From: Archaeoglobus fulgidus DSM 4304
GTDB lineage: Archaea > Halobacteriota > Archaeoglobi > Archaeoglobales > Archaeoglobaceae
Direction: 5' to 3'
Assembly: GCF_000008665.1 (NCBI RefSeq)
Contig: NC_000917.1
Span: 870,001-902,000, forward strand
Length of the DNA: 32,000 nucleotides
In this document: piece by piece, positions 1 to 23,603 of the stretch
How positions within the stretch are numbered: the first letter of the stretch is position 1
Layout of the letters: each line of letters opens with the position of its first letter
Program-made: the position numbers and the translations under genes
The notes under the pieces: generated by a model
The model's input: the letters and a program-made list of their open reading frames with translations, nothing else
Databases searched by the model: none
Told to the model about the DNA's origin: nothing

Positions 1-560
1 AGGAACGCCTGGAAGGCAGCGTTCCAGCTCGTTGCTATCATTCCGCCCCACACAACGTAGAGCATCACTATAATCGTTCCAACTATCAGTCCAATGATGT
101 AGGGCACTTTTGCGACAGCTAACAGGAAGAGGGCCATACCCACAAGCGAGAGCGTTATGTAGAGCACCGCACCAATCACTGTAACTATACCCACAAGCCA
201 TCTGAGCCTCTGGTCGTTGTACCTGTCAGCGTAGTAGTCAGCAAAGCTTGTTGGTGCGTACTTTCTCAGTGCTGATGCTGTCAGCAGAGTTGCAATGGGC
301 ATTCCAGCAATTATGGCCGACATCGCCCACCAGAAGGGGTAGCCGAGGATGAAGATGTATGCCGGTAGTCCGAGCATCGAAGCAGGGCTCAGGTAAGTAG
401 ATTCCAGTGCAAGACCGTTAACAACAGCGCCAACCTGCCTTCCAGCAACGTAGTAGTCTGTAGCGCTCTTCAGCCTTTGCCTCGAATAGTATCCTATTAT
501 AATTATGGCCAGGAAGTACAGCACTGTAATTCCTATGACCGGTGCCTCCACCTGAGCCAT
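1..560 (-). CDS. Sodium:solute symporter family permease, ActP-like cation/acetate symporter (N-terminal 186 aa only; gene runs off the left edge)
   Basis: Absent from the ORF track because it is open to the window edge. Reverse translation from ATG (560-558) gives MAQVEAPVIGITVLYFLAIIIIGYYSRQRLKSATDYYVAGRQVGAVVNGLALESTYLSPASMLGLPAYIFILGYPFWW... This follows the SSS/ActP N-terminal pattern (compare E. coli ActP ...[41 protein letters not shown]). The ATG overlaps the stop of the upstream small ORF (TAATG). Confidence 0.8.
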   Translation of the reverse strand, partial: MAQVEAPVIGITVLYFLAIIIIGYYSRQRLKSATDYYVAGRQVGAVVNGLALESTYLSPASMLGLPAYIFILGYPFWWAMSAIIAGMPIATLLTASALRKYAPTSFADYYADRYNDQRLRWLVGIVTVIGAVLYITLSLVGMALFLLAVAKVPYIIGLIVGTIIVMLYVVWGGMIATSWNAAFQAF

Positions 561-778
561 TACGAACCACCTCTCGCTTCTTCAGCCTTCTCCGGGAAGT
601 AGAAGTATATTATCGACATGAACAGCGGTATCAAGAACGTCCCTAGGAACGACGCGTACCAGAAAGCTGCCGTCGGTATGTGGTTTATCCCTGCAGTCGC
701 TTCCCCAATCCAGCAAAGTGCCACAAAGCCGTAGTACACTACCAAACCTACCCAAAACACTTTCGGCGGCCAAGGCAT
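560..778 (-). CDS. Small (72 aa) two-TM membrane protein, putative symporter accessory subunit
   Basis: The track ORF is 560..820. The ATG at 820 lies inside the TATA-like ATATTTAAAT (819-828). The internal ATG at 778 is preceded by AGGTGAGAAA (SD), so I prefer 778. The protein is hydrophobic (MPWPPKVFWVGLVVYYGFVALCWIGE...FLIPLFMSIIYFYF). It sits immediately upstream of an SSS permease with a 1-nt stop/start overlap, like the YjcH/DUF4212-type small partners of ActP-like carriers. Confidence 0.55.
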   Translation of the reverse strand: MPWPPKVFWVGLVVYYGFVALCWIGEATAGINHIPTAAFWYASFLGTFLIPLFMSIIYFYFPEKAEEARGGS

Positions 779-921
779 TTTCTCACCTACCTTCTCTATT
801 GTTTGTGATAAATCCAACATATTTAAATTTTTTCATTTATGAACACAACTAATGTTGATTGATATTTAAAATGAGTGTATCTGCAAAAGCTTTATATTGC
901 CAGATTTGTTAATTATAAAAA

Positions 922-2724
922 ATGCTGCCGCCTAAAGAGTTTTTGAGAAAAATAAAACCCTTCAATCTACTGAAAGAGGAAGAGCTTGAGAAAATAGTTG
1001 GCGAGCTGGAAGTGGAGGCTTACGAGGAGGGCGAGGAGATAATAAAGCGCGGGGAGAACAGCAATTACGTTTACTTCGTTTACTCTGGCGTTGTCGGAGT
1101 ATATGAAAATGGAGAGCTAATTGACCGGTTCTCAAGGGGAGAAATATTTGGCCTTACGCATAACCCGCAGAGGGTTGCTGTAGCTGAGGAGGACACGATT
1201 TGCTACCTCATCAAGAAAGACGTCTTCATGGACATCATGGAAAAAAACAAGCTTTTCTCAGACTTTTTCAAATCTTTTGAGGAGAAAAGGTTTAGCAGAA
1301 TTCCTGACCTCTTCAGGGAGGAAGAAATTACTGACAGGTTATTTCTGACAAGAGTTGGAGAGCTTATTTCAAAAAAACCGGTTGTCTGCAGTCCATACAC
1401 GTCAATCAGAGACGCTGCAATTAAGATGGAGCTTAACGGAGTCGGTTCGATTGTGGTGGTGGATGACAATCTCAAACCCCTCGGAATACTAACGAGCAAG
1501 GACTTTAGAACCTTCATTATCTACGGAAAAAGCCACCAGGAAAAAGTTTCCGCGTACATGACTTCTCCAGTAGTTGCTGTTGACTACTCAACACCGGTGT
1601 TCGAGGCCCATCTCGAGCTACTGAAGAGGGGCATAAATCACCTTGTTGTCACAGAGAACGGAAAGGTGAGGGGCGTAATAACGGCCAACGACATCTTAAC
1701 ACTCTTTGAGCCAACAACCTCCCTCATCGTGCTGTACAGAAAACTGAAAAAGGCCAAGAGCCTCGAAGAAATAAAAAACACGTTTAAGAATTTGACAAAA
1801 TCGATTTCTTCCCTTGTAATGCGAGGTATGCACTTCTACGACCTTTCCAACATACTGACGGAAATCTACGACTATCTGGTTGTAAAGGTGATTGAGATGG
1901 AAAAGGAGAGATTTGAGAGGGAGTGGGGAAAGCTGCCCTCTTTCGCATGGGTGCACATGGGAAGCTCAGCCAGGAAGGAGCAGGTAATTGCAACCGACCA
2001 GGACAACGCAATCGTTCATGAGGGTGACGGAGAGGGGCTCAGCCAATTTGCGGAGAGTGTCAACAACGCTCTCGATTACGTTGGAATTCCGAAATGCAGG
2101 GGAGGGTACATGGCGATGAACTGGTGCAAGAGCGTTGAAGAGTGGAAAAGCGTTTTTTCAGAGTGGTTTATCAAGCTGACACCAGACAACCTCAGATTCC
2201 TCTCAGTATTTCTCGACCTGAGGGTCATCTACGGAGACGAAAAACTCTGCAAAGAGTTGATTGAGCACATCAAGAGGGAGCACACTTCTCAATCCCTACG
2301 ATACCTCGCCTACGATGCCACGATAGCGGAACCTCCCCTTGGGCTTTTTGGGTTAAGAATGAAGAAGGAAATTGACCTAAAGATGAACGGAATATACCCT
2401 ATTGTAAACGGTGTGAGGGTTCTTGCTTTAGAGCACGGATTAATCGAAGTAACTAACACGAGGGAAAGGCTGGAAGAGCTTAAGGAGGCTCATGTAATGG
2501 ACGCAGACCTTGCCGAGTCCCTTAAGGAAACTTACGAGTTTCTCCAGGATTTAAGGCTTAGACTCCAGGCGAAAGAGGTTGTTGAGGGCAAAAAAGCTGA
2601 TAACGTCATCAAAGTGTCTGAGATCGACAGAATCGAGGCCTTCGTCCTTAAAGAGGGCTTCAAGGTTATCAAAAAGTTCCAGAACTTTTTAAAGGGGCAT
2701 TACAGCATTGAGAGGGGTCTTTAA
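922..2724 (+). CDS. Signal-transduction protein: cNMP-binding domain + CBS pair + DUF294-type (GlnD-like, Pol-beta fold) nucleotidyltransferase + DUF294_C substrate-binding domain
   Basis: aa 5-115: Crp/cNMP-binding fold (RGEIFGL...PQRVAVAEEDT). aa 140-262: two CBS motifs (PVVCSPYTSIRDAAIKM...GSIVVVDD; VVAVDYSTPVFEAHLELLKRGINHLVVTENGKVRGVITANDIL). aa 345-363: HMGSSARKEQVIATDQDNAIV, which is the G[GS]...DxD nucleotidyltransferase motif (nt 1960-2004). The C-terminal helical domain is typical of DUF294_C. Confidence 0.85.
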   Translation: MLPPKEFLRKIKPFNLLKEEELEKIVGELEVEAYEEGEEIIKRGENSNYVYFVYSGVVGVYENGELIDRFSRGEIFGLTHNPQRVAVAEEDTICYLIKKDVFMDIMEKNKLFSDFFKSFEEKRFSRIPDLFREEEITDRLFLTRVGELISKKPVVCSPYTSIRDAAIKMELNGVGSIVVVDDNLKPLGILTSKDFRTFIIYGKSHQEKVSAYMTSPVVAVDYSTPVFEAHLELLKRGINHLVVTENGKVRGVITANDILTLFEPTTSLIVLYRKLKKAKSLEEIKNTFKNLTKSISSLVMRGMHFYDLSNILTEIYDYLVVKVIEMEKERFEREWGKLPSFAWVHMGSSARKEQVIATDQDNAIVHEGDGEGLSQFAESVNNALDYVGIPKCRGGYMAMNWCKSVEEWKSVFSEWFIKLTPDNLRFLSVFLDLRVIYGDEKLCKELIEHIKREHTSQSLRYLAYDATIAEPPLGLFGLRMKKEIDLKMNGIYPIVNGVRVLALEHGLIEVTNTRERLEELKEAHVMDADLAESLKETYEFLQDLRLRLQAKEVVEGKKADNVIKVSEIDRIEAFVLKEGFKVIKKFQNFLKGHYSIERGL

Positions 2725-3341
2725 TGGAGGGCAGTTTAAGGAAAGTACAGTTTCTGTCGATAGACCTGGAAACCACAGGCTTAAACCAGAAAAAAGATGA
2801 AATCATCGCAATAGGAGCAGTCCCAATAATCGGAACAAGAATTTTGGCCGGAGAAAGCTACTACAGGCTTCTCAGACCGGAAAAATTCAAGCATGAGTCG
2901 ATGAAGTTCCACGGCCTCGACCCCGCAAGACTGAAGACGGCACACGACTTCTCAGAGATTGCTGAAGAAGTTGCGGACCTCTTAAGGGGAAAGGTGCTGG
3001 TGGGTTACGCGATAGAACTCGACTATGGCTTCCTAAAGAGAGCTTTAAAGAGAGAGGGCTACAAAGTGGAGAACAAGAGGATAGATGTTATAGACTTCGA
3101 AAAGGCGGTCTGCTACATTCTCGGAGAGAGACCGGTAGGGGAAATGACTCTGGACAATTTGGCAAAGAAATACAGGGTTGAGGTAAGCTACAGGCACAAC
3201 GCCCTCGCCGATGCCTTCATAACGGCCCAGATTTTTCAGGTTCAGCTTCTTAAAATTCTGAAGTACGGAATAAAAACTATCGATATGCTGTTTGATCTTA
3301 TAAAGAGAGTTGAGAGAGACCGCCAGTATCACATTTTCTAA
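2724..3341 (+). CDS. DEDDh 3'-5' exonuclease (DnaQ / Pol III epsilon-like, stand-alone)
   Basis: ExoI is LSIDLETTGL (D14, E16). ExoII is VGYAIELDYGFL (D100). ExoIII is HNALADA (H158, D163). The start overlaps the upstream stop (TAATG at 2722-2726), indicating translational coupling. Confidence 0.85.
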   Translation: MEGSLRKVQFLSIDLETTGLNQKKDEIIAIGAVPIIGTRILAGESYYRLLRPEKFKHESMKFHGLDPARLKTAHDFSEIAEEVADLLRGKVLVGYAIELDYGFLKRALKREGYKVENKRIDVIDFEKAVCYILGERPVGEMTLDNLAKKYRVEVSYRHNALADAFITAQIFQVQLLKILKYGIKTIDMLFDLIKRVERDRQYHIF

Positions 3342-3360
3342 TATTTCTACAATTTTTTAA
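3342..3360 (+). terminator. Oligo-T tract after the exonuclease gene (possible archaeal terminator)
   Basis: ATATTTCTACAATTTTTTAA: a T6 run at 3353-3358 directly after the stop codon. Archaeal RNAP terminates at oligo-T runs. Confidence 0.3.
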
Positions 3361-3449
3361 AGTTTGAAATCGAAAAACTTATACATTTGAAAATTACCAA
3401 ATTATTAATACTGCATGGAGGGATTGTATTGAGTAGTGTGGAGGAGTAT

Positions 3450-4760
3450 ATGGATTATATGAAAAAATTGCTCGGTGCTGAAGACCTCTTTGACAGGGAT
3501 GAGCCCCTCAAGGGCGTTAGGGTTCTTGAGGTTTGCAGCGTCGTTCTCGGACCTGCAGCAACAGACTATCTGGCTGAGTTTGGGGCAGAGGTGATAAAGT
3601 TCGAAGCCCGCAGGGGAGACCAGATGCGCTACGTCACTCCGTACGCCTACTTCTGGAGAAACCTCTCTCCGGGACTGCTGGAGCAGAACCACAACAAGTA
3701 CTGGGTTGGCATGCACCTCGGCCACCCTAAGGCGAGAGAGCTCTTCTACGAGTTCGTGAAGCGGAGCGATGTGGTCGTGGACAACCTCACTCCCGGAAGG
3801 CTTTCAAAGTGGGGTATTAGCTACGACAGGCTGAGAGAGATTAATCCGAGGATTATACAGCTTCACGTCTCTGGTTTCGGAAGCTGGGGACCATACACTG
3901 GAAGAACTTCCTACGATGCGATTGCTCAGAGCGAGGGTGGCTTGGCTTACATTACTGGCTTTGAGGGGAGAGGCCCGCTCAAGTCGGGTGTGTGGATTGC
4001 TGACTGGACAACTGCTCTGATGTGTGCAGTTGCTATCGTTGCAGCCCTGAACTACAGGGAGAGGACAGGAGAAGGGCAGTACATCGACTATTCTCAGGTT
4101 GAGAACGTCATCAGATTTCTGGACTGGACTTGGACCTACGTGGATATGACAGGAGAGAACAGGGAGAGAGTGGGGAACAGGGATCTGGCAATCTGCCCCT
4201 CTGACCTATTCGACTGCAAGGATGGATGGGTTGCAATCGTTGCTTTCAGCGAAGAGGAGTTCAAAGGCCTGTGCCAGGCTATGGGGAGAATGGATCTCTA
4301 CGAGAAGTTTGCCGACCCGCTTGAGAGGCTGAAGGATGAGAATGCGAGGCTGATTCTGAAGGAAATTGCTGAGTGGGCAAAAACCAAGACGGTTAAGGAT
4401 GTTGAGGAGCTTGCAGACAAATACGGCTTTGCAGCCTCACATGTTATTGAGGTTGACGAGGCCTACTACAGCGAGCATCTGAGGGAGAGGGGGGCAATTA
4501 TGGCCTACGACGACCCACTGTATGGGGAATTTGTTGAACCTTGCTACCCGCCAAGGATGGAAACGCCTTCAAGGCTGAAGTGGGGTGCGAGGCCATTGGG
4601 CTTTGACAATGAGTTTGTACTGACAAAGTACCTCGGCCTGAGCATGGATGAAATCGAGCAGCTTTACGAGGAGGGCGTCATCTACAGGTGGAATCCAGAC
4701 GTGAAGCCGCAGTGCCCTCCGCCGGACTGGGACGGAAAGAAGGGGTTGAAGTTCCCGTGA
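3450..4760 (+). CDS. Family III CoA-transferase (CaiB/BaiF/Frc family), catalytic-type paralog A
   Basis: N-terminal CoA-binding signature [33 protein letters not shown]. Catalytic-Asp context [30 protein letters not shown] (Asp codon at 4002-4004). The track start at 3387 is a TTG within the promoter region. The ATG at 3450 has GTGGAGGAG 5 nt upstream, so I prefer it. Confidence 0.85.
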
Positions 4761-4769
4761 GGTGATAGA

Positions 4770-6122
4770 ATGGAGGAGAAGGCGATTGTTGGAATGGCCC
4801 TCGACCCCCAGTATGCCAGATTCATCTACAACGAAACCAATCCCGACGACGTGATGAGAAAGCCCGAGGCAATAGACGACATGGTCGTCCTTGATATGAG
4901 CTACGGGAACTACGCCGGGCTGTTTGCATCGTCTCTGCTTGCTGAGCTTGGGGCGGAGGTTATCAGGATCGAGCCGCCTGAAGGAGACATTGCCAGAAAA
5001 ATGACGCCTTACGGCATAATGGTCAAGGATGCAGGTTTGGCTTATCTGACTGAGGGAAGAAACAAGTTTCACGTTACGCTCAACATTGAAAAGGAAGAGG
5101 GCAGAGAACTCCTTAAGAGGCTTGTCAAGAAGGCCGATGTTCTTATTGAATCCTTCAAGCCGGGATACATGGATTCTCTGGGCATTGGCTACAGGCATCT
5201 GAAAGAAATCAATCCCGGACTGATTTACTGTGCTGTAAACACCTACGGCCAGTTCGGAGAGGATGCGAAGAAGCATTCAAATCAGCCCGACTATGACATG
5301 ACTGATCAGGCTAGGGGAGTTGTAATGTCGGTGACAGGCGAGCCAGAGCTTGACCCTGAAGTTCCACAGGAGTACAAGAAACCTCTCAAACACGGAAACT
5401 GGATGGGGTGGTATGTTGGCGGTACGTGGGCGGCTTTTGGAATTCTTTTGGCGATGTTCTACAAGAGAAAGACGGGAAAGGGGCAGATGATTGATGCCGC
5501 CCCGCCAGAGGGGATGATGGCAATCTCCAACTACCTGATGCAGTACTTCCACCTCACCAAGAACAAGATGGTAAGGGCTGGCAATTTCGACTACGCTGTC
5601 TTCCCCTACACCTACGTGAGATGCAAGGACGGCTACGCCTTCATGTCGGGCTTCACTGATCCAAACTGGGCTGCCCTCTGCGAGATAATGAACCGCCCCG
5701 ATCTGCAGCAGCAGTTCCCCACAATCAAGGAAAGGCTGACTCCAGAGAACCAGCCCAAGATTCAGCATGAGATTGAGAAGTTCACAATGAACTACACTGC
5801 TGCGGAGCTTCTTGAAATTGTGACTGAGTACTCAAGAAGGCCCGACAAGAAGGGGACGGTTGTTACTGGCAGATTAAACGCTCCAAAGGAGGTTCTGGAC
5901 ATTGAGCACTTCAAGGTCAAGAGGATGTTCGTAAAAATGAAGGACCCGCACTACGGTGAGGTGCTTGTCCCCAACTCAACGCTGAGGTTCATGTCCAAAA
6001 CTCCGGGAAGAGTTAAGTGGGTCTGCAGGCCGATTGGGGCTGATAACGAGTACATTTATGGGAAGTATCTGGGTATTTCGGGTAAGAAGCTTGAGGAGCT
6101 AAAGGAGAAAGGAATTGTTTAA
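4770..6122 (+). CDS. Family III CoA-transferase paralog B (catalytic Asp position occupied by Trp)
   Basis: N-terminal [36 protein letters not shown] and central ...[31 protein letters not shown] align with paralog A with no gaps. SD GAGGTGA lies 5 nt upstream, 9 nt after the stop of paralog A. Confidence 0.8.
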
Positions 6123-6145
6123 TTTTATTTTTTGAGGTGAGAAAA

Positions 6146-8065
6146 ATGGGCTTTATCTGGCATCCGCCAAAAGAATTGGTTGAGGAGTCCAACGTCAAGG
6201 CCTTCATGGATGCTGAGGGCTTTTCCGACTACAAGCAGATGGTTGAGAAGTCCACTGACGACATAGAGTGGTGGTGGAGCAAGGCTGTTGAGTGGCTCAA
6301 TGTGGAGTGGTTCAAGCCCTACGAGAAGGTCTACGACATGTCGAAGGGCATAGAGTGGACTGACTGGTTCGTGAACGGCAGAGTAAACGCCGCTTACAAC
6401 GCCTTGGACAGGCACAGAAAGAAGAGGAACAAGTTAGCGTTCATCTGGCAGGGAGAGGATGGAGAAGTGAGGAGATACACCTACCTCGAGCTTTACAGGG
6501 AAGTGAACAGGCTCGCCAACGCCCTCAAGGCCTTTGGAGTTGGGAAGGGGGACGTTGTGGCCCTCTACCTCCCAATGTTTCCTGAAACTGTCGTTACTCT
6601 CTTTGCTGCCATGAAGATTGGCGCCATTGCGATGCCGATATTCTCGGGCTATAGCTCTGCAGCCATTCAGACGAGGCTTGCTGATTCAGATGCGAAGGTT
6701 GTTGTTACAGCAGATGCAAGCTACAGAAGAGGGAGGGCTGTGCCACTCAAGCCCGAACTCGACAAGGCCCTTGAGGGGACGAAGGTTGAGAAGGTTGTTG
6801 TGGTGAACAGGGCGGACACCGAAGTTGAGATGAAGGAGGATAGGGACGTTTACTGGGATGAGGTTAAGGAGAGCAGCAGGTGTGAGACGGTTGAGATGGA
6901 CCCCAACGATGCTGCTTTGCTGCTCTACACCTCAGGCACAACCGGAAAGCCGAAAGGGGTTGTTTTATCCCATGCGGGAGTGATTTTGCAGAGCAGCAAG
7001 GAGATTTTCTTCAACATGGATTTGAAGCCTGAAGACGTTTTTCTTTGGATCACCGACATTGGCTGGATGATGGGGCCTTGGCAGATTATTGGCTGCCAGC
7101 ATCTCGGCGGGACTCACGTTCTCTTTGAGGGAGCCCCCGACTATCCCAACACCGACAGGATATGGGCGATGATTGAGGAGTTTGAAATTACGCAGCTTGG
7201 TGGTTCAGCGACGGTTTACAGATTGCTGAAGAGATACGGAGATGAGGCGGTAAAGCAGCACGACCTGAGCAGTTTAAAGGCTACGGGCAACACCGGAGAG
7301 CCGATAGACCACGACACGTGGATGTGGCTGCTGAAGGTCGTTGGCGAGGAGAGGTGCCCGATCATAAACCTCTCAGGAGGAACCGAGATCTTCGGCTGCT
7401 TTTTGCTTCCCTCTCCCGCAATGCCCCTCAAGCCGACAACCTTGGGCTATCCCGGATTGGGGATGGACGTGGATGTGTTTGATGACGCTGGAAACTCTGT
7501 GAGGCAGCAGATTGGATATCTGGTTTGCAAGAAGCCAGCCCCATCAATGACAAGAGGCTTCTGGAAAGACCCTGAGAGGTACATCAAGACCTACTGGAGC
7601 AGGTGGAAGGGAGTCTGGTACCACGGAGACTGGGCTTATGTTGACGAGGATGGTTTCTGGTTCCTCTTCGGCAGGGCCGATGACGTCATAAAGGTTGCAG
7701 GAAAGAGAATGGGACCTGCAGAGATTGAGACCATCGTGAACTCCATTCCTGCTGTCCAGGAGTCCGCATGCATTGGAGTTCCGCATGAGCTTAAGGGAGA
7801 GGTTGTTTGGGTTTTTGTGACTCTAAAGCCCGGCTATGAGCCGAGTGAGGAGCTGGAGAAGGAAATCGTTGACAAAATTGTGAAGGAGTTCGGAAAGCCC
7901 TTCAAGCCGGACAGGGTTGTGTTTGTCCCCGATCTGCCGAGAACGAGGAGCGGGAAGATTATGAGGAGGCTGATAAAGGCTGTTGTTGCCAAGCAGGAGC
8001 TTGGCGACACCTCAGCTCTGGAAAATCCGGACTCGCTGGAGAAGATAAAGGAGGTTTTGGGGTGA
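6146..8065 (+). CDS. acs: Acetyl-CoA synthetase (AMP-forming)
   Basis: Acs-typical N-terminus (WHPPKELVEESNVKAFM...WW...W.KP). AMP-binding motif YTSGTTGKPKG. C-terminal PRTRSGKIMRRLI (A10 lysine). GAGGTGA (6134-6140) precedes the ATG at 6146. The track's GTG at 6137 lies inside that SD. Confidence 0.9.
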   Translation: MGFIWHPPKELVEESNVKAFMDAEGFSDYKQMVEKSTDDIEWWWSKAVEWLNVEWFKPYEKVYDMSKGIEWTDWFVNGRVNAAYNALDRHRKKRNKLAFIWQGEDGEVRRYTYLELYREVNRLANALKAFGVGKGDVVALYLPMFPETVVTLFAAMKIGAIAMPIFSGYSSAAIQTRLADSDAKVVVTADASYRRGRAVPLKPELDKALEGTKVEKVVVVNRADTEVEMKEDRDVYWDEVKESSRCETVEMDPNDAALLLYTSGTTGKPKGVVLSHAGVILQSSKEIFFNMDLKPEDVFLWITDIGWMMGPWQIIGCQHLGGTHVLFEGAPDYPNTDRIWAMIEEFEITQLGGSATVYRLLKRYGDEAVKQHDLSSLKATGNTGEPIDHDTWMWLLKVVGEERCPIINLSGGTEIFGCFLLPSPAMPLKPTTLGYPGLGMDVDVFDDAGNSVRQQIGYLVCKKPAPSMTRGFWKDPERYIKTYWSRWKGVWYHGDWAYVDEDGFWFLFGRADDVIKVAGKRMGPAEIETIVNSIPAVQESACIGVPHELKGEVVWVFVTLKPGYEPSEELEKEIVDKIVKEFGKPFKPDRVVFVPDLPRTRSGKIMRRLIKAVVAKQELGDTSALENPDSLEKIKEVLG

Positions 8066-8069
8066 GTTT

Positions 8070-9725
8070 ATGGAGATTGAGAGATATATCGTTCCAAAGG
8101 AGACTTGGCCCGAGATAATAATTCCTGTCGAGGTGCAGGAGTATATTGGAGAGAGGAAGGAGCTGAATCTGGCTGAAGAGTTGCTTGACCGAAATATCAG
8201 GGAAGGGCGAGGCAGAAAGGTGGCTGTTTACTTTGAGGACAGGAGAGTAACTTACAGAGACCTCTACAGGCTGAGCAACAAGATTGCCAACTTCCTTGTT
8301 GGGATAGGCGTCCAACCGTATGATAGAGTCGGTTTCAGAACGAGGAACATGCCGGAAGCAATTGCAGTGAACTTCGGCATAATGAAGGCAGGAGCCATTC
8401 CTGTGCCTCTAAACCCAATGTGGGCGGGCAAGGAGGTGTCATTCGTCTCGAACAACGCTGAAATTAAGGCCTTGTTTGTCAGCGGTGACGAGAGAGTATT
8501 CCCGGCGGTGAATGAGGTCAAGGATGAGATCAAGACTGCAAAGGCCATGGTTGTGATGGATGGGGAGAAGGAGGGCTTCATCCCCTTCTCGGAGGTTACG
8601 GCTGAGAGTGCGAAGTTTGACCCAATACTGCTCAAAATCGGAACCCCAGCACTGATTCTCTACACCTCTGGCACAACAGGCTTGCCAAAGGGCTGTGTGC
8701 ACTTCGTTGAGAATGTGATATCATCAGTCTACCTCGTGGGCAAGCACGTCTGGAAGCTCACACCAGATGACGTTGTTGGAGGGCCCGCTCCGGTAAGCTT
8801 TGCGATGGGCTACGGCAACGGCTGCCTAATTCCCTACTTCCACGGTGCTGCAGCGAGCATCTGGCCGAGATTCAGCGTTGAGAACTTCTTCAAGTACGTG
8901 GAGGAGCACGGCATCACAGTCTTTTCCTCACTTCCAACATCCTACAGAATGATTCTCGCCGACCCCAAGCTGGAGGAGTACATGAACAAGTACGACATCA
9001 GCAGTCTGAGGCTCTTCACGGGCGGTGGAGAAGCTTTGGGTGCTGAGACGGCAAAGAGGTGGAAGGAGGTCTTCGGAATGGACATCTACGAGTCTCTGGG
9101 TGCTACAGAGATGCTGCACATCTGTATCGCCAACGCCTGCGCTCCCAAGCCCGTTGCTGGAAGCATAGGTTTTCCAGTGCCGGGCTATATTGCTAAGATA
9201 GTTGACCCTGAAACTGGAAAGGAGTGCGGGGCAGATGAAGTGGGGAGCTTATACATCAAAGGTCCGACCGGAATAAGATACTGGAATCACCCATCGAGAG
9301 ACCTGAGCGAGAAGCAGGCGAAGAGTGTGAAGAACGGCTGGAACGTGCTCGGAGACTTCGTCAGGAAAGATGAAAACGGCTACATATACTTCGTTTCCAG
9401 AGATGACGACCTAATCAAGTCCAGCGGCTACAGAATCGGGCCAGATGAAATAGAGCAACCCCTCAACACCCATCCGGCAGTTGCCGAGTGTGCTGTCATA
9501 GGCGTTCCTGACCCAGAGGGAATCAGGGGACAGGTAGTGAAGGCCATAATAAGGCTCAAGGAGGGTTATACTCCAGACGAGAAGCTCAAGGAGGACATTT
9601 TAGCCTTCCTTGAAAAGCACATCGCCAAGTACAAGCTACCGAGGATAATTGAGTTTACGGATAAACCTCTGCCAAGAACACCCACAGGAAAGCTGCTGAG
9701 AAGGCTGTTGAAGCAGAGTAGCTGA
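8070..9725 (+). CDS. AMP-dependent acyl-CoA synthetase/ligase (ANL superfamily; substrate unknown)
   Basis: YTSGTTGLPKG, GYGNG, YRIGPDEIE and C-terminal LPRTPTGKLLRRLL motifs. SD GGGGTGA upstream. It lies 4 nt after the acs stop. Confidence 0.85.
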   Translation: MEIERYIVPKETWPEIIIPVEVQEYIGERKELNLAEELLDRNIREGRGRKVAVYFEDRRVTYRDLYRLSNKIANFLVGIGVQPYDRVGFRTRNMPEAIAVNFGIMKAGAIPVPLNPMWAGKEVSFVSNNAEIKALFVSGDERVFPAVNEVKDEIKTAKAMVVMDGEKEGFIPFSEVTAESAKFDPILLKIGTPALILYTSGTTGLPKGCVHFVENVISSVYLVGKHVWKLTPDDVVGGPAPVSFAMGYGNGCLIPYFHGAAASIWPRFSVENFFKYVEEHGITVFSSLPTSYRMILADPKLEEYMNKYDISSLRLFTGGGEALGAETAKRWKEVFGMDIYESLGATEMLHICIANACAPKPVAGSIGFPVPGYIAKIVDPETGKECGADEVGSLYIKGPTGIRYWNHPSRDLSEKQAKSVKNGWNVLGDFVRKDENGYIYFVSRDDDLIKSSGYRIGPDEIEQPLNTHPAVAECAVIGVPDPEGIRGQVVKAIIRLKEGYTPDEKLKEDILAFLEKHIAKYKLPRIIEFTDKPLPRTPTGKLLRRLLKQSS

Positions 9726-9898: not shown

Positions 9899-12017
<2,119 letters not shown>

Positions 12018-18224: not shown

Positions 18225-19268
18225 ATGAAGAGGTTGGCGGTGGTGCTTTGCCTAATCGTGATTGGAGTTTTTTTAGCCGGCTGTGCTGCAGAGGAGAAGC
18301 CTGAGGGAGCAACAACCCCTAAGGTAGAGGTTAAGCCGTGGAGCTGGGCTACCTGTGACCCGTCCTGCTACGCTTACAGAGTAGTAACTGGAATTTTCGA
18401 TGCGGTGAAGGATGACGTCCCAGGCTACGAGTTTTCTGTTAAACCCTATTCCTCAACAACTGCAGCTATTAAAGGATTCTGCAACGGTGAAGCTGAGAGT
18501 GCCTATATTGCTGACCTGGCAGCCAAGAACCTTTATGAGTCAACCGGGTCTTTTGAGGGATTCGTGTGTGAACAAAAGCCCGTTCAGACATTCTGGGCTT
18601 ACACCATGGAGACTTTCCTCGTCACAACAAAGGAGAACGCTGAGAATATCAGGAGCTGGAGTGACCTTGATGGAAAGTCAGTTTACCTCACCCCTGCGGG
18701 ATACATGAACCATCTGAACCTCAGAAGAGCCTTCGCCGTTCTCGGAGTGGAGCCGCAGCACACAGAGGTTGACTCAAAGTTCGTCTGCAAGGCCCTCGAA
18801 GAGGGAACGATTGTGGCAACAGGTCTTTACACCACAGCCGGAGTCTCTCTGCCCACATGGGGGCAGGAGCTGACCATAGCCTGCAAGGACAAGCTTGTTG
18901 TAATCAAAATGAGCGACGAGGAGAAGCAGAAAATCATGGCCAAGTACGGGGTCAAAGAGATTGATGTGAGCAAGTGGGGCATTGAGGGGACTGCAGATGC
19001 GGTTCCGTTCTACTTCGGATTCCACACAAGCCTGAATACACCTGAAGATGCGGTTTACAATCTGTTAAAGGCTCTGGAGAAGAATTCAGACAAACTCGCT
19101 CAGGTTGACCCAGGACTTGAACCTCTCGCCAAGAACGTTGCGGAGTTCCAGGTTGGAGGAATAAAGTCTGCTGACCCAAGCGTTATGCCCATTCATCCTG
19201 GTCTGGCGAAGTATTTGAAGGAAAAGGGGTTGTGGAACAGCGAGTGGGATCAGTACATAGCCAAGTGA
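18225..19268 (+). CDS. TRAP transporter solute-binding lipoprotein, TAXI family
   Basis: Signal peptide plus lipobox MKRLAVVLCLIVIGVFLAGC|AAE. About 320-aa periplasmic-binding fold, immediately followed (SD GGAGGTG) by a fused TRAP membrane component, which is the TAXI-type architecture. Confidence 0.75.
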   Translation: MKRLAVVLCLIVIGVFLAGCAAEEKPEGATTPKVEVKPWSWATCDPSCYAYRVVTGIFDAVKDDVPGYEFSVKPYSSTTAAIKGFCNGEAESAYIADLAAKNLYESTGSFEGFVCEQKPVQTFWAYTMETFLVTTKENAENIRSWSDLDGKSVYLTPAGYMNHLNLRRAFAVLGVEPQHTEVDSKFVCKALEEGTIVATGLYTTAGVSLPTWGQELTIACKDKLVVIKMSDEEKQKIMAKYGVKEIDVSKWGIEGTADAVPFYFGFHTSLNTPEDAVYNLLKALEKNSDKLAQVDPGLEPLAKNVAEFQVGGIKSADPSVMPIHPGLAKYLKEKGLWNSEWDQYIAK

Positions 19269-19282
19269 TCGGAGGTGGCTGA

Positions 19283-21214
19283 ATGGTTAACTCTTCCAAA
19301 TTTTTTTCCTACCTAATTTTTATCGCGTCTCTCATTTACTTTTCCTGCGCCATTTACTACTACACCACTGGCACAATGGGAACGATGTTCTGGGTTCTCG
19401 CCTTGGTGCCGGTGGCGTATATAATCTACACACTTGAAAAGCTGAAGGATGGCAGTCTTTATCCGAAGCTTGGTAAATTTCAGTATGCGGTTGGGTTTTT
19501 CTTCATAGCCATATGCGTTTTTTCGGCCGTTTACCTCCCCATGAACTATCTCGACTTGATTTACACGAGAGTTGGTTCTTTCACGCTAACCGATAAGCTT
19601 GTTGGTGTTTTCCTATTCCTGTTTGTTGTTGAATACGCGAGGAGGGAGCACAAGGTTTTATTCTTTCTGATAATATTTCTTATCATTTACTGCATGTACG
19701 GGGACTTGTTCCCCGGAATTCTGAAAACTTCGAGAATAAGCCTCGAAAGGGTAATCACTTCATCCACAATCGAAATTAAGCTCGGAATGTTCGGCACCTA
19801 CGCTCAGGCCGGTGTGGGAATAATAGGTGCCTTCCTTCTTCTCATGGGAATTGCAAAGGGCTTCGAAATAGACAAAGCCCTGATCAGGACGATAATAAAC
19901 GCCCTGAGCAAAAGGCCCGCGCTGATTCCTCAATCAGCCGTGATAGGTTCAATGAGCGTTGCGATGTGTACGGGATCAGGAGCGGCAGATTCAGCTCTGG
20001 TAGGGCAGTTCACAATTCCGGCAATGCGCAGGGCTGGATTTCCTGCTCTATATGCAGCAGCAACTGAGGGCGCTGCTGCTCTCGGTGGGCTTATAATGCC
20101 ACCAGTTATGGCCATAGCAGCCTTTCTCATGGCTGAGTTTCTGGGTGTAAGTTACTTCGAGGTTGTAATCAGGGGATTCGTTCTGGCTTTCATTTACTAC
20201 TTCTCCATAATACTCACGGTCTACCTCCTCACCATTCAGTACGTGAAGCCGGGCAGGATAAAAATTGACGACGTGCTTTCGCAGCTTGGCAGGGTTGAGA
20301 TAACGGACAAGGTTTATGCCGTAATATTTTTCCTCAGCCTCATCCTTCTCATTGTTTTGATGGGAGTTTTCTGGTGGCCGGAAGTCAGGGCAGCGCTCTT
20401 CACATCGATGCTTTTCCTGATCGCAGCATCGGTGATCAGAGTTTTAACAGCGAAAGACTTAAAGAAGGGTTTGAAAGAGCTGCTTAAAGGATTAAGGGGT
20501 GCAATAGAGGGTTATCCTGCAGTAGTAGTCGATATACTGCTACTTCTGGCTGTACTCGGAATTATAATAAACCTCTTCACCGTTAGCGGGTGGTTGATTA
20601 AAATCAGCATGCTTCTTCTCGACCTCGGAGAGGAAAGTCTGATCATTCTCGTCGCCCTCAGCTTCATGCTCGCCTACTTTCTGGGATTCGGCCTTCCACC
20701 ATCGGCAGTTTACATCATAGCCTCCGTGCTCGTTGTAACTCCCTTCATCTCCTTCGATGTGGACAAGTGGGTTGCGCACTTCTTCGTGTTCCTCGCTGCG
20801 GCAATATCCGAGTTCACACCCCCGGTAGCGCTGATAGCTGCTGTAACCTCAAGAATTGCCGAAACTCCCTTTGTAAAGACAGCATTCTACACCCAGAAGT
20901 GGATTCTGCCAATATACCTGCTGATATTCGCCGTTCTGACGTGGCCGGAGCTCGTTGTTCAGCCCGGATTGGAGATGCTCAAGGCCTTCGCCATTGTACT
21001 CATCGCCTGTTTAACAATAACTGTAGGAAGCTTTGGCAAAGTCAGCAGAAGAAGGGCTTTGGACTACTCAGCGAGATTTGGGATAATAGCGCTTGGATTG
21101 GTGATACTTTATGGGCCGGTTAAGGCATTGGCTCCAATGCTTGCACTGATTTCTGTTGTTGTGGTTTTCCTGGGTTTCAGACAGACCAAGAAAATATCCA
21201 TGATGGAGGAATAA
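19283..21214 (+). CDS. TRAP transporter fused permease (4TM/12TM DctQ-DctM fusion, TAXI-type)
   Basis: 643 aa with more than 16 hydrophobic segments. DctM-like core motifs (GSMSVAMCTGSGAADSALVGQFTIPAMRRAGF; AATEGAAALGGLIMPPVM). Genetically coupled to the TAXI binding protein. Confidence 0.8.
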   Translation: MVNSSKFFSYLIFIASLIYFSCAIYYYTTGTMGTMFWVLALVPVAYIIYTLEKLKDGSLYPKLGKFQYAVGFFFIAICVFSAVYLPMNYLDLIYTRVGSFTLTDKLVGVFLFLFVVEYARREHKVLFFLIIFLIIYCMYGDLFPGILKTSRISLERVITSSTIEIKLGMFGTYAQAGVGIIGAFLLLMGIAKGFEIDKALIRTIINALSKRPALIPQSAVIGSMSVAMCTGSGAADSALVGQFTIPAMRRAGFPALYAAATEGAAALGGLIMPPVMAIAAFLMAEFLGVSYFEVVIRGFVLAFIYYFSIILTVYLLTIQYVKPGRIKIDDVLSQLGRVEITDKVYAVIFFLSLILLIVLMGVFWWPEVRAALFTSMLFLIAASVIRVLTAKDLKKGLKELLKGLRGAIEGYPAVVVDILLLLAVLGIIINLFTVSGWLIKISMLLLDLGEESLIILVALSFMLAYFLGFGLPPSAVYIIASVLVVTPFISFDVDKWVAHFFVFLAAAISEFTPPVALIAAVTSRIAETPFVKTAFYTQKWILPIYLLIFAVLTWPELVVQPGLEMLKAFAIVLIACLTITVGSFGKVSRRRALDYSARFGIIALGLVILYGPVKALAPMLALISVVVVFLGFRQTKKISMMEE

Positions 21215-21232
21215 AAATATTTTAAATTACTT

Positions 21233-22411
21233 TTAAGCCCTCAAATCTGCTATTTCCTCCTCTGAAAGCCCAATAGACTTCAAAATCTCTTCAGTGTGCT
21301 CCCCAAGCTTTGGCGGCCTTCTCACCTCAACCTCAAAGCCTGAGAACTTCACAGGGTTGTTGAAGAGCTTGATTTTTCCAAGTTCAGGGTAATCCACCTC
21401 AACCACAGTTTTGCGGTGCTTTGTCTGCGGGTGCTCTATAACTTCCTGTATTGTGTTCACAGCCCCGCATGGCACTCCAGCTTTGAGCAGTATCTCTATC
21501 CAGTCGTCCCTCGGCTTCTCCCTGAACTTCTCTATGATGATTCTCTCAAGCTGCTCCCTGTGCTTCAGCCTCTGCTGGTTTGTTGCAAACCTTGGGTCGT
21601 CAAGCAGCTCCTCCAGCCCCACAGCCTTGCAGAACTCCTTCCAGTGCCACTCGGTTGCAACAACAACGTTGACCAGCTTTCCGTCTCCAGCCGGATAAGG
21701 CTCGTAGGGTGTGGCGAGGAAGTACTTTGTCCCCATTCTAAGCTCTTCATCCTTCATTCCCTCGACAATGGCCATGTTCATCAGATTGAGCATCATTGTG
21801 ACGGCACAATCAAACAGGGAGATGTCAATCTCCATTCCCTCCCCCGTCTTTTCTCTTCTCAGCAGTGCTGCGAGAACAGCATAGGCACCGTACATTGAAG
21901 CCAGCAAATCAGTGATGGGAACGTTAATCTTGCACGGCGTTTCTCTTGTTCCTGTGTAGCTGATTATCCCCGCCTCGCCCTGAATGAGCTGGTCAAAGGC
22001 CGGGCGGTCTCTGTAAGGCCCGTCCTGCCCAAAGCCCGAAACGTGGCAATAGATGATGTCCGGCTTTACTTTTTTTACAGCCTCATAGTCAACACCGAGC
22101 TTCTTCACAACTCCCGGAACAAAGTTCTCGATTATGACATCAGCCTTCTCTGCAAGCCTGAAAAAAATCTCCCTGCCCTTCTCCTGTTTCAAATCGAGCG
22201 TCATTGACTTTTTGTTTCTGTTGACAACACCAAAGTAAAAGCTCAGGTCAGCCCTTATGGGGATCCAGTGCCTAGCCAGATCCCCAACTCCCGGCCTTTC
22301 AATGTGAATTACCTCAGCCCCCAGATCAGCCAGCAGAGTTCCGATGTAGGGCCCTGCTACAGCCTGCCCCAGTTCGAGAATGAGCAGGTTGTTGAAGGGC
22401 TGGAAGGCCAA
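21233..22411 (-). CDS. Family III CoA-transferase (GcdG/glutarate-CoA-transferase-like)
   Basis: LLILELGQAVAGPYIGTLLADLGAEVIHIERPGVGD. Catalytic Asp context NVPITDLLASMYGAYAVLAALLRREKTGEG (Asp codon 21908-21910). TTG start at 22411 with AAGGTGAT SD 4 nt upstream, overlapping the gcdH stop. There is no in-frame ATG that would preserve the CoA-binding N-terminus. Confidence 0.85.
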   Translation of the reverse strand: MAFQPFNNLLILELGQAVAGPYIGTLLADLGAEVIHIERPGVGDLARHWIPIRADLSFYFGVVNRNKKSMTLDLKQEKGREIFFRLAEKADVIIENFVPGVVKKLGVDYEAVKKVKPDIIYCHVSGFGQDGPYRDRPAFDQLIQGEAGIISYTGTRETPCKINVPITDLLASMYGAYAVLAALLRREKTGEGMEIDISLFDCAVTMMLNLMNMAIVEGMKDEELRMGTKYFLATPYEPYPAGDGKLVNVVVATEWHWKEFCKAVGLEELLDDPRFATNQQRLKHREQLERIIIEKFREKPRDDWIEILLKAGVPCGAVNTIQEVIEHPQTKHRKTVVEVDYPELGKIKLFNNPVKFSGFEVEVRRPPKLGEHTEEILKSIGLSEEEIADLRA

Positions 22412-22415
22412 AATA

Positions 22416-23603
22416 TCACCTTAGCTCCCTTCTGAAGGCCTGATATCCTGTTATAGCCCTGCCCAAAATCAGCGTGTGGATGTCATCCGTGCCCTCGTAA
22501 GTATAGACGGACTCAATGTTGGCCATGTGCCTTATCGGCGAGTAGTCAAGGCTTATGCCATTGGCCCCAAGCAATTCTCTCGCAGTTCTTGCACAGTAGC
22601 GAGCCACTCTAACATTGTTCTTCTTGGCCATTGAAATCTGCTCGGTTGTAGCCTTCCCCTCATCCATCAGCTTTGCCAGCCTCCACGCGAGAAGCTGCCC
22701 CTTGGTTATCTCAATGAGCATGTTAACCAGCTTCTCCTGCACAAGCTGGTAAGATGCTAAAGGAGCTCCAAACTGCTTCCTCTCCTTCGTGTAGTTTAAC
22801 GCAGTCTCGTAGCAGTCCATTGCTGCTCCTATCGCCCCCCATGAGATTCCAAACCTCGCCTGATTCAGGCAGCTGAGCGGTGCCCCCAGCCCTCTTGCCT
22901 CAGGCAACCTGTTCTCCTCGGGCACTCTGCAGTTGACAAGGCCAAGCTCGCCCACACTTCCAGCCCTCATCGAGGCTTTCTTTGTTATTGCCGTCTGCTG
23001 GAATCCCTTCGTGCCTCTCTCTACAATAAAGCCCTTTATCTTTCCATCTTCAACATCCCTCGCCCAGACAACAGCTATGTCAGCCACATCAGCCTCGCTG
23101 ATCCAGGTCTTGGTGCCATTCAGCACCCACTCATCCCCATCTCTCCTTGCAGTTGCCTCCATGCTGCCCGGGTCGCTGCCGTGATTCGGCTCTGTAAGGC
23201 CGAAAGCCCCGATAATTTCTCCCCTTGCAAGTTTTGGCAGGTATTCCCCCTTCTGCTCCTCACTGCCGTATCTCCAGATGGGATACATTACCAAGCCAGA
23301 TGTGACGGCAACAAAGCTTCTCAGAGCGCTGTCAACCCTCTCGACCTCCTGACAGACTACACCAAAAGTTGTGTAGGTCATTCCGGGGCATCCATACTCC
23401 TCTGGCAGGAAGGTGCCGAGCATTCCAAGCTCCCCAAACTTCTTCCCCAGCTCATGGAAGTTTAACGGCTTCTCCTCGTGCCAGGCATCGGCAACAAGCG
23501 GCACAACCTCCTTCTCCAGAAACTCTCTCACCGACTGCCTTACAAGCCTGTCCTCGTCGCTCAAAAGCTCGTCAACATTGTAAAAGTCCACTCCTCTGAA
23601 CAT
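22416..23603 (-). CDS. gcdH: Glutaryl-CoA dehydrogenase-type acyl-CoA dehydrogenase
   Basis: Collinear along its full length with GCDH as I remember the human enzyme: GLTEPNHGSDPGSM, LNGTKTWI, LSCLNQARFGISWGAIGAA, FGAPLASYQLVQEKLVNM, IESVYTYEGTDDIHTLILGRAITGYQAF. The catalytic Glu is in YEGT. Confidence 0.85.
   Translation of the reverse strand: MFRGVDFYNVDELLSDEDRLVRQSVREFLEKEVVPLVADAWHEEKPLNFHELGKKFGELGMLGTFLPEEYGCPGMTYTTFGVVCQEVERVDSALRSFVAVTSGLVMYPIWRYGSEEQKGEYLPKLARGEIIGAFGLTEPNHGSDPGSMEATARRDGDEWVLNGTKTWISEADVADIAVVWARDVEDGKIKGFIVERGTKGFQQTAITKKASMRAGSVGELGLVNCRVPEENRLPEARGLGAPLSCLNQARFGISWGAIGAAMDCYETALNYTKERKQFGAPLASYQLVQEKLVNMLIEITKGQLLAWRLAKLMDEGKATTEQISMAKKNNVRVARYCARTARELLGANGISLDYSPIRHMANIESVYTYEGTDDIHTLILGRAITGYQAFRRELR

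Follow-up and report, generated by a model that had tools for sequence, protein, structure and literature searches.

Two overlapping genes in a 32,000-nucleotide (nt) stretch of the Archaeoglobus fulgidus DSM 4304 genome (NC_000917.1, positions 870,001 to 902,000, forward strand; hereafter the window) encode a sensor-bearing DUF294 nucleotidyltransferase (NTase) and a DnaQ-type DEDDh exonuclease, and together they are the archaeal copy of a gene pair that is already recognised and is biochemically an orphan. We tentatively favour the reading that the pair is a reversible protein-nucleotidylylation switch acting on nutrient uptake or on first-step activation, partly because the NTase fold and signature group with GlnE, GlnD, and DrrA. 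An earlier reading of this DNA made from the letters alone (the sequence-only reading) had proposed a writer/eraser pair gated by adenine or cyclic nucleotides and possibly controlling acetate or acyl-CoA activation; the writer/eraser idea is still the best reading and gains support here, whereas control of acetate or Acs specifically is too narrow a scope and cyclic-nucleotide gating is doubtful.

In the switch that we envisage, N-terminal cyclic-nucleotide-binding (CNB)-like and CBS modules would respond to a ligand inside the cell (probably an adenine nucleotide or metabolite, not canonical cAMP) and would gate an NTase of the GlnE/GlnD/DrrA Pol-beta type. Judging from fold, motif, context, and genetics, the NTase would move a nucleoside monophosphate (NMP) from a nucleoside triphosphate onto a tyrosine, serine, or threonine hydroxyl of a target protein and would inhibit that target, candidates being a sodium:solute symporter (SSF), its small subunit, or an acyl-CoA-forming enzyme. 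The co-translated DEDDh enzyme would hydrolyse the phosphodiester on the target, free 5'-NMP, and restore activity. The nutrient under control at this locus would be that of an SSF monocarboxylate-type symporter with its small subunit, encoded beside CoA-transferases and acyl-CoA synthetases. The two genes and the domains of the NTase are as follows.

922..2724, plus strand: sensor-NTase, candidate writer; 600 aa, ATG start
2724..3341, plus strand: DnaQ-type DEDDh 3'-5' exonuclease/phosphodiesterase, candidate eraser; 205 aa, ATG start
NTase aa 5-120: domain resembling cyclic nucleoside monophosphate (cNMP)-binding domains
NTase aa 140-262: CBS pair, followed by a helical linker
NTase aa 290-445: NTase core (DUF294, GlnE/GlnD-type Pol-beta)
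NTase aa 457-594: helical DUF294_C domain

Domains, catalytic sites, and predicted folds

The NTase is 100% identical to XD40_1663 (P0001), a protein from an A. fulgidus metagenome-assembled genome; the exonuclease likewise has a counterpart in A. fulgidus at 100% identity. Pfam profiles matched cNMP_binding (PF00027, aa 32-109, E 1.4e-12, 47.8 bits against a cutoff of 27.5), two stretches of CBS (PF00571, E 3.8e-26), DUF294 (PF03445, aa 290-421, E 2.3e-35, 122 bits against 21), and DUF294_C (PF10335, aa 457-594, E 6.3e-41, 140 bits against 22.5), with a weak match to GlnD_UR_UTase; profile search thus places aa 290-600 in the two DUF294 families. The exonuclease matched RNase_T (aa 12-171, E 5.9e-38) and, among the DnaQ models of NCBIfam, passed only the broad domain model TIGR00573 ('dnaq', 250 bits, cutoff 71.5), staying below the cutoffs of the epsilon equivalogs TIGR01406 dnaQ_proteo (71.8 bits against 222.7) and NF004316 (75.3 against 196). 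The stop codon of the NTase and the start codon of the exonuclease overlap as TAATG at positions 2722-2726, as read from the sequence. The sequence-only reading had called these domains, this overlap, and the catalytic motifs (G347 at nt 1960-1962, D361 at nt 2002-2004), and the Pfam and NCBIfam matches, the conserved catalytic columns, and the coordinates all agree with it.

Both active sites are strongly conserved. Across 56 relatives of the NTase, G347, R351, E353, D359, Q360, D361, D432, and R434 are invariant and S348 is kept in 54; the signature G-S-x-G-R-x-E...D-x-D...D-x-R includes the third carboxylate, D432, and the motif is retained even in a bare Bacillaceae variant that has no sensor. 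The GlnD/GlnE consensus, G-x-G-R-x-E...D-x-D, is common to the NTase. In the exonuclease, D14, E16, D100, H158, and D163 are invariant in 59 relatives, and free-standing exonuclease partners from five phyla keep the D-E-D/E-H-D set in every lineage examined, the third acid being Glu in the Bacillaceae and Vibrio partners. As for the sensor, the cNMP-like domain matches PKG CNB domains in the PDB by sequence (E 7e-18). Glu74 of its phosphate-binding cassette is conserved, as Glu in 44 and as Asp in 12 of the 56 relatives, and the cassette Arg (position 84), which the window protein has, is Arg in only five of them. Because so few close relatives carry this Arg, canonical cyclic-nucleotide gating seems doubtful for the DUF294 family, and so does the earlier description of the enzyme as cNMP-gated, the sensor modules being freely swapped or absent.

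An AlphaFold2 (AF2) model of the NTase had a mean predicted local distance difference test score (pLDDT) of 88 and a predicted template modelling score of 0.77. When the NTase half was compared with the PDB by Foldseek, the best matches were GlnE (1v4a, E 9.8e-10; 3k7d, E 5.7e-9) and DrrA (6yx5, E 4.3e-8). The two GlnE entries are both halves of that enzyme (N- and C-terminal domains), and it is the NTase plus the helical domain that they match. GlnE and DrrA are protein-tyrosine adenylyltransferases, and no poly(A)/CCA-type or cGAS-type NTase occurred among the top 50 Foldseek matches of the model; the rest of these 50 cover the CBS and CNB domains, and the CBS pair has fold matches to AMP- and S-adenosylmethionine-bound CBS pairs. 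By sequence, none of the 60 best matches to solved structures fell in aa 290-600, all of them lying in the cNMP/CBS region. That the predicted NTase fold lies nearest to GlnE and DrrA, both AMPylators of protein tyrosines, is new in this analysis. The exonuclease model (mean pLDDT 91.5) had as its top Foldseek matches the DinG exonuclease domain, Pol III epsilon, PolC-exo, ExoI, and RNase T.

Pairing, partners, and published genetics

We collected 94 related loci (L001-L094) and clustered them at 90% NTase identity; as a scan of genome contigs with the single protein gave only six loci, counts of gene context rest on a metagenome scan and exact-protein look-ups and are biased to relatives at least 40% identical. 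Of the 49 full-length non-redundant loci whose sequence runs on for 650 nt or more past the NTase, 48 have the exonuclease immediately after it on the same strand, with a median gap of 0 nt and with overlaps of 1 or 4 nt in many of them. The pairing is far beyond chance, and the tight coupling noticed in the window is conserved well outside this genome. The one exception (L043/L044) is a full-length cNMP/CBS-DUF294 gene followed not by an exonuclease but by two AMP-binding ligase genes, with an SSF symporter upstream. In Pseudomonas aeruginosa, yjcH, actP, the NTase, and the exonuclease follow each other on one strand. The pair is also present in Vibrio pelagius and, with the gene order reversed and the overlap retained, in Hymenobacter (Bacteroidota), and in both the cassette sits in a polysaccharide locus.

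The family is large: at 50% identity, the NTase core is found in 3,296 cluster representatives at E ≤ 1e-3 and in 2,294 at E ≤ 1e-10. Its common form, of ~600-650 aa, carries cNMP-like and CBS sensors; other forms have CBS only (~480 aa), two cNMP plus CBS, PAS plus CBS, or sCache_2 plus PAS plus CBS. The last are predicted membrane sensors whose Cache domain is most like the MctS and CtpM models, which we take to be carboxylate sensors. In Bacillaceae the NTase is bare (~325 aa) and the order amtB, DUF294, RNase_T was found in all eight loci (L003-L006, L095-L098; e.g. L004 8606-11631), with an exonuclease of 244 aa belonging to NCBIfam NF005836 ('hypothetical protein'). These amtB operons have no glnK, and the DUF294 pair stands at the usual glnK place; a MerR (TnrA/GlnR-type) regulator adjoins the operon in L096 and L097. 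The Bacillaceae variant stands in the physiological setting of the GlnD/GlnE paradigm. Its placement where glnK is expected is new in this analysis; the operon had been noted in a table footnote of a 2012 paper. On plasmid 1 of Paracoccus denitrificans (L103, 5407-12307), one apparent operon begins with CBS-DUF294 and an 81-aa open reading frame (ORF) and continues with an SSF-domain histidine kinase of CrbS-like architecture, a response regulator, and a PAS-RNase_T protein of 706 aa. In this arrangement a transporter-like two-component sensor is encoded between writer and eraser.

Which phosphoesterase serves as partner varies: it can be a DEDDh enzyme, a fused PHP domain, or an adjacent Metallophos protein, and this interchangeability too is new in this analysis. 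Two long sCache_2-PAS-CBS-DUF294 proteins have an N-terminal PHP domain and no DEDDh partner, and two other Cache-type DUF294 genes, likewise without a DEDDh partner, have a Metallophos gene 5-13 nt upstream; P0410 and P0491 are among these Cache-type proteins.

L099, 4246-7841: Cache-type DUF294 locus without a DEDDh partner
L100-L102, 4226-7523: Metallophos-partnered Cache-type DUF294 loci

Genes for a DUF4212-SSF symporter and a SatP/YaaH acetate channel lie close by in L100-L102. The nearest families to the Metallophos partner, by weak similarity, are YfcE and ApaH; for the PHP domain the nearest is the pAp-phosphatase/RNase AM type. Since the partner is swapped among DEDDh, PHP, and Metallophos, what is conserved is 'a phosphodiesterase', as expected of an eraser. 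A natural CBS-DUF294-DUF294_C-RNase_T fusion, P0488 (690 aa), also points to NTase and exonuclease being linked, functionally or physically. Its exonuclease residues are E-K-H-N-D instead of D-E-D-H-D, and the RNase_T domain is probably a pseudo-enzyme domain; we considered the fusion as evidence of catalytic coupling and dropped it for this degenerate site, so that it supports association only.

The modular build of the family can also be read in another way, in which the NTase synthesises an oligonucleotide, linear or cyclic, or attaches a nucleotide to a small metabolite, its partner is the cognate phosphodiesterase (PDE), as in GGDEF/EAL and cyclase/PDE systems, and the signal acts on transporters or regulators. 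DUF294 as an output behind sCache_2, PAS, CBS, cNMP-like, or no sensors would suit such a signal, as would a generic, interchangeable phosphodiesterase (the YfcE/ApaH-like and pAp-phosphatase/RNase AM-type partners) and an eraser that may itself carry a PAS sensor, as in Paracoccus, like regulated PDEs. The DEDDh enzyme Orn degrades pGpG and pApA, and the KNTase_C-clan C-terminal domain occurs in small-molecule NTases as well. We nevertheless consider a nucleotide signal quite unlikely: the top matches show no likeness to cGAS/DncV/OAS-type synthases, PADLOC gives no CD-NTase match, no dedicated receptor is conserved beside the pair, and the closest homologues all modify proteins.

The sequence-only reading knew of no substrate, product, or phenotype for the pair. 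In the literature that we searched there is indeed no biochemical study, substrate, or product, including NMP transfer to tyrosine; the absence of a phenotype, however, was wrong, given the effects of deletions on growth on pyruvate and propionate and the cofitness with a symporter. The operon of PP_0354 (NTase) and PP_0353 (exonuclease) in Pseudomonas putida KT2440 is controlled directly by MxtR/ErdR (CrbS/R), the acetate-switch system, and both genes rank with those that depend on it most (PMC9927547; bioRxiv 10.64898/2026.09.07.749794). Deletion of either gene reduced growth on propionate, while on pyruvate the PP_0353 mutant was impaired (complementably), as were actP-I and yjcH mutants, and the PP_0354 mutant was not (PMC9927547; bioRxiv 10.64898/2026.09.07.749794). 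P. aeruginosa PA3232-PA3235 are induced ~16-fold on propionate. Price et al. reported, for Shewanella and P. stutzeri, cofitness between the DUF4212 small subunit of an SSS symporter and a gene close by that they label 'COG2905 (RNAse T domain protein)', which we infer to be the exonuclease. Previous authors have differed on what the pair does: Price et al. speculated that the COG2905/RNAse T protein is needed for expression of the symporter, Henriquez et al. speculated on mRNA degradation, and a 2026 preprint suggested protein modification by analogy with PII uridylylation, calling the function unknown (bioRxiv 10.64898/2026.09.07.749794). In the published genetics, it is exonuclease loss and not NTase loss that mimics loss of the transporter, as predicted if the writer inhibits and the eraser relieves, and this reading of them is new in this analysis.

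Several points weigh against protein nucleotidylylation. The neighbours vary widely, from carboxylate, ammonium, and polysaccharide loci to none, and because the flanking genes are so varied no single conserved protein target is evident. The characterised close relatives of the exonuclease all act on nucleic acid 3' ends, and we know of no DEDDh enzyme that de-nucleotidylylates a protein. Nucleic-acid 3'-5' exonucleases are found in each of the families DEDDh, PHP, and Metallophos, and the choice of partners would suit an RNA or DNA substrate equally well. The sole fusion, P0488, has the degenerate site E-K-H-N-D, the P. putida phenotypes are mild, and the cofit gene of Price et al. was identified as the exonuclease from gene numbering and the label they gave it.

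A rival reading is RNA 3' tailing and trimming, in which the NTase adds untemplated nucleotides and the exonuclease trims them, setting the stability or function of an RNA and hence uptake-gene expression; the transporter operon mRNA, a small RNA, or a tRNA would be candidate substrates. The exonuclease has a typical DnaQ/RNase T fold whose characterised relatives work on nucleic-acid 3' ends, and 3'-5' exonucleases occur in all three partner families alike. RNA writer/eraser pairs are known, such as CCA-adding enzyme/RNase T and GLD2/PARN. The speculations on symporter expression (Price et al.) and mRNA degradation (Henriquez et al.) point the same way. Set against this, the NTase fold and signature are GlnE/GlnD/DrrA-like and not poly(A)/CCA-like, neither protein has an RNA-binding domain detectable with Pfam or NCBIfam, and the window holds no conserved structured RNA or Rfam family. 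One RNA target is hard to square with such varied loci, and an exonuclease-null phenotype without an NTase-null one is less natural if tails merely destabilise. We regard RNA tailing as rather unlikely, and protein nucleotidylylation is the reading that we carry forward.

If this reading is extended to the whole family, DUF294 NTases with DnaQ, PHP, or Metallophos partners would be a widespread and previously unrecognised class of reversible protein nucleotidylylation. In it, a proofreading-type exonuclease fold would serve as a dedicated de-nucleotidylylase, gating SSF/AmtB transporters or the first assimilating enzymes and replacing GlnK at the Bacillaceae amtB. We put this generalisation forward with low confidence.

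Neighbourhood and origin of the archaeal copy

The genes and signals around the pair are as follows.

1..561, minus strand: SSF symporter, N-terminal part, running off the window edge; Pfam SSF E 2.9e-25
560..820, minus strand: small protein with two transmembrane segments, 86 aa as listed, preceding the symporter
821..921, no strand: divergent intergenic region, 101 nt, between the NTase and the minus-strand operon
within 821..921: TTTAAAT element for the minus-strand operon, read from the sequence
about 887-898: archaeal B-recognition element (BRE)/TATA-like element AAAGCTTTATAT, roughly 25-35 nt upstream of the NTase ATG, likewise read from the sequence
3387-4760, plus strand: family-III CoA-transferase (Pfam)
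4770-6122, plus strand: family-III CoA-transferase (Pfam)
6137-8065, plus strand: Acs-like acyl-CoA synthetase (Pfam)
8070-9725, plus strand: second AMP-binding ligase (Pfam)

The TATA-like element at 887-898 is kept in the related Archaeoglobus loci L001 and L015-L018, and as the NTase promoter it would imply a leaderless or very short-leader transcript. Between the putative divergent promoters, at ~838-862, there is an imperfect inverted repeat that is perfect in L001 (ATCAACA-n7-TGTTGAT), is found also in L017, and is not conserved in the more distant Archaeoglobus loci L015, L016, and L018; it may be an operator. The genes at 3387..9725 appear to have their own AT-rich/T-rich intergenic signals. 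A scan of the window against Rfam returned no RNA family, and a scan for sigma-70 promoters and intrinsic terminators, models that are not applicable to an archaeon, found no more than in shuffled controls.

The SSF symporter and small-protein genes are transcribed divergently from the pair, and the small-protein stop and symporter start overlap as TAATG, the same as at the NTase/exonuclease junction. The 86-aa ORF has no match in the Pfam copy used, with no DUF4212 or DUF485 even at E = 10, and is 62% identical to a protein of L013 that carries a precomputed PF27382 'AF_0970' assignment; by analogy with YjcH/DUF485 and DUF4212 it is a candidate small subunit of the symporter. Its true start is probably the internal ATG at Met15 (nt 778), which has a Shine-Dalgarno-like GGTAGGTGA before it; homologues align only from residue 7-12 on. 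The symporter is the candidate for the transporter regulated by the pair. SSF homologues adjoin the pair in nearly all Archaeoglobales loci and lie ~5 kb away in Desulfosoma-like loci, and the same pair of CoA-transferases flanks the cassette in bacterial loci of the Desulfosoma type.

Linkage to carboxylate uptake and activation genes, as proposed from the window, is frequent. Of 54 non-redundant loci, 28 carry within 4 kb of the pair one or more of these genes: an SSF symporter (13 loci), a CoA_transf_3 gene (11), an Acs-like ligase (7), or an acyl-CoA dehydrogenase (7). The P. aeruginosa yjcH-actP-NTase-exonuclease arrangement is a further instance of this linkage. In many loci the neighbours are unrelated. 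The constant unit is the gene pair, and the metabolic theme is frequent, not universal; control of acetate or Acs specifically is too narrow a proposal for a cassette that also follows amtB in Bacillaceae and sits in Vibrio and Hymenobacter polysaccharide loci.

Two other clusters in the window deserve mention. At 9899-11414, starting ~6.6 kb downstream of the exonuclease, are genes for an Amt ammonium transporter and for P-II (GlnK). GlnD-type NTases classically act on P-II, and GlnD itself is not known from archaea. We considered this amt-glnK linkage as a clue to a PII target and rejected it, as P-II matches were found in none of the 94 loci (L001-L094) up to 10 kb on either side; Amt is near the pair only in the Bacillaceae variant and in one other locus. 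At 18225-23603 there is a second carboxylate/acyl-CoA cluster, with a solute-binding protein and a fused TRAP DctM-type transporter, a family-III CoA-transferase, and an acyl-CoA dehydrogenase, and the metabolism of the region is acyl-CoA-centred. No CrbS/R-type kinase or regulator was noticed among the annotated ORFs of the window, no test having been aimed at one.

The sequence-only reading took the presence of the pair in an archaeon as a sign of ancient function, which our comparisons do not support. All named archaeal homologues are from Archaeoglobales, and the closest bacterial ones, at 42-45% identity, are from Syntrophobacterales, Desulfobacterales, and Thermodesulfobacteriota. In a neighbour-joining tree of the NTase core, built without bootstrap, Archaeoglobales and sulfate-reducing Desulfobacterota form one clade inside bacterial diversity, and Desulfosoma has in common with the window a block of SSF symporter, small protein, two CoA-transferases, and the NTase-exonuclease pair. 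This nesting, the synteny with Desulfosoma, and the restriction of archaeal homologues to Archaeoglobales therefore favour horizontal transfer, and the archaeal copy was probably acquired between domains, as opposed to being of ancient archaeal ancestry.

Within Archaeoglobus (L016, L015, and L001 against window positions 1-9725), the pair has changed much faster than the genes flanking it. NTase and exonuclease of L016 share 64% and 69% identity with those of the window, against 90-96% for the symporter, CoA-transferases, and ligases, and the divergence of the Archaeoglobus NTases is spread across all domains. Allelic replacement, or selection that is relaxed or diversifying, could account for this. 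In L017 and L019, whose NTase is 93% identical, the match breaks after residue 382 and the called protein (P0023) has 398 aa and no DUF294_C; the break is a frameshift, owing either to a pseudogene or to an assembly error.

Fast divergence relative to the flanks can also be taken as a mark of a housekeeping or conflict role, that is, of a DNA proofreading or repair nuclease or of an anti-phage or toxin-antitoxin-like module (an NTase joined with a nuclease, cf. CBASS, MNT/HEPN). The best sequence and fold matches of the exonuclease are PolC/DnaQ proofreading domains, and PADLOC matches it to a generic CRISPR-associated DEDDh model. Even so, we consider such a role very improbable. The exonuclease falls far under the epsilon equivalog TIGR01406 (72 bits against 223), and archaea, as far as we know, have no Pol III. 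PADLOC assigned no defence-system membership (CBASS/CD-NTase, Pycsar, or MNT-HEPN), and its match to the NTase covers only aa 22-119, the cNMP-like domain, with none to the NTase core. Around the pair are genes of metabolism and transport rather than of mobile elements or defence, and CrbS/R regulation and the carbon-source phenotypes point to metabolism.

Significance and comparison with known systems

The value of the finding lies in the family, which is large, conserved, and regulated, with phenotypes that are mild but informative; the interchangeable partners, the amtB-linked bare variant, and the exonuclease-null genetics turn a vague annotation into specific testable predictions. If the writer/eraser model is true, DEDDh would be a new eraser fold in protein AMPylation and UMPylation. 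It would explain post-translational tuning of short-chain carboxylate and ammonium uptake in bacteria and some archaea, and would give a function to a large family mis-annotated as 'DNA polymerase III epsilon-like' in genomes for which such a protein is superfluous, archaea without Pol III among them.

The nearest relatives of the window pair in terms of organization are the proteobacterial cassettes. PP_0354/PP_0353, PA3233/PA3232, and the Shewanella and P. stutzeri 'COG2905' genes are the same cassette, a cNMP-like/CBS/DUF294 NTase followed by an RNase_T exonuclease. It has the same kinds of neighbours, namely actP/yjcH or an SSF symporter with its small subunit, acs, and a CoA-transferase. 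The archaeal NTase core, however, is only ~30-34% identical to theirs, and the archaeal pair is divergent to an SSF symporter with an AF_0970-type protein instead of DUF485 or DUF4212.

Among characterised enzymes, GlnE provides the closest solved folds to the NTase and helical domain (1v4a, 3k7d), at ~14-15% sequence identity. GlnE and GlnD exemplify sensor-gated reversible modification of a nutrient-assimilation regulator, and a DUF294 variant is operonic with amtB. GlnE undoes its modification by phosphorolysis, using a second NTase domain, and GlnD has an HD domain for this; the candidate eraser here is an enzyme of its own, of the DEDDh, PHP, or Metallophos family. The sensors differ as well, being ACT or PII binding in GlnE/GlnD and CBS, CNB, PAS, or Cache domains in the DUF294 family. 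Legionella DrrA (SidM) and SidD offer a GlnE-like AMPylator (6yx5) with a separately encoded de-AMPylase in an adjacent gene. SidD, however, has a PP2C-like phosphatase fold, and the two are secreted effectors acting on host Rab1, not metabolic regulators. SelO and RNase Z are a precedent for a nuclease-family metallo-phosphodiesterase erasing protein AMPylation, although the writer is a pseudokinase, the eraser a metallo-beta-lactamase, and the genes are not operonic.

Pol III epsilon (DnaQ), PolC-exo, and RNase T have the same DEDDh fold and catalytic residues as the exonuclease, and Pol III epsilon hydrolyses an aryl-NMP ester. The exonuclease differs from DnaQ in falling under the epsilon equivalog cutoffs and in being paired obligately with an NTase rather than a polymerase. 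MNT/HEPN (MntA-HepT) shares a Pol-beta NTase with a helical partner domain of the KNTase_C/HEPN clan, but DUF294_C is without the HEPN RNase motif and the pair shows no toxin behaviour or mobile context. CCA-adding enzyme/RNase T and GLD2/PARN share with the pair the logic of opposed nucleotide addition and removal, while the NTase fold is nearer to GlnE and DrrA than to CCA/PAP enzymes.

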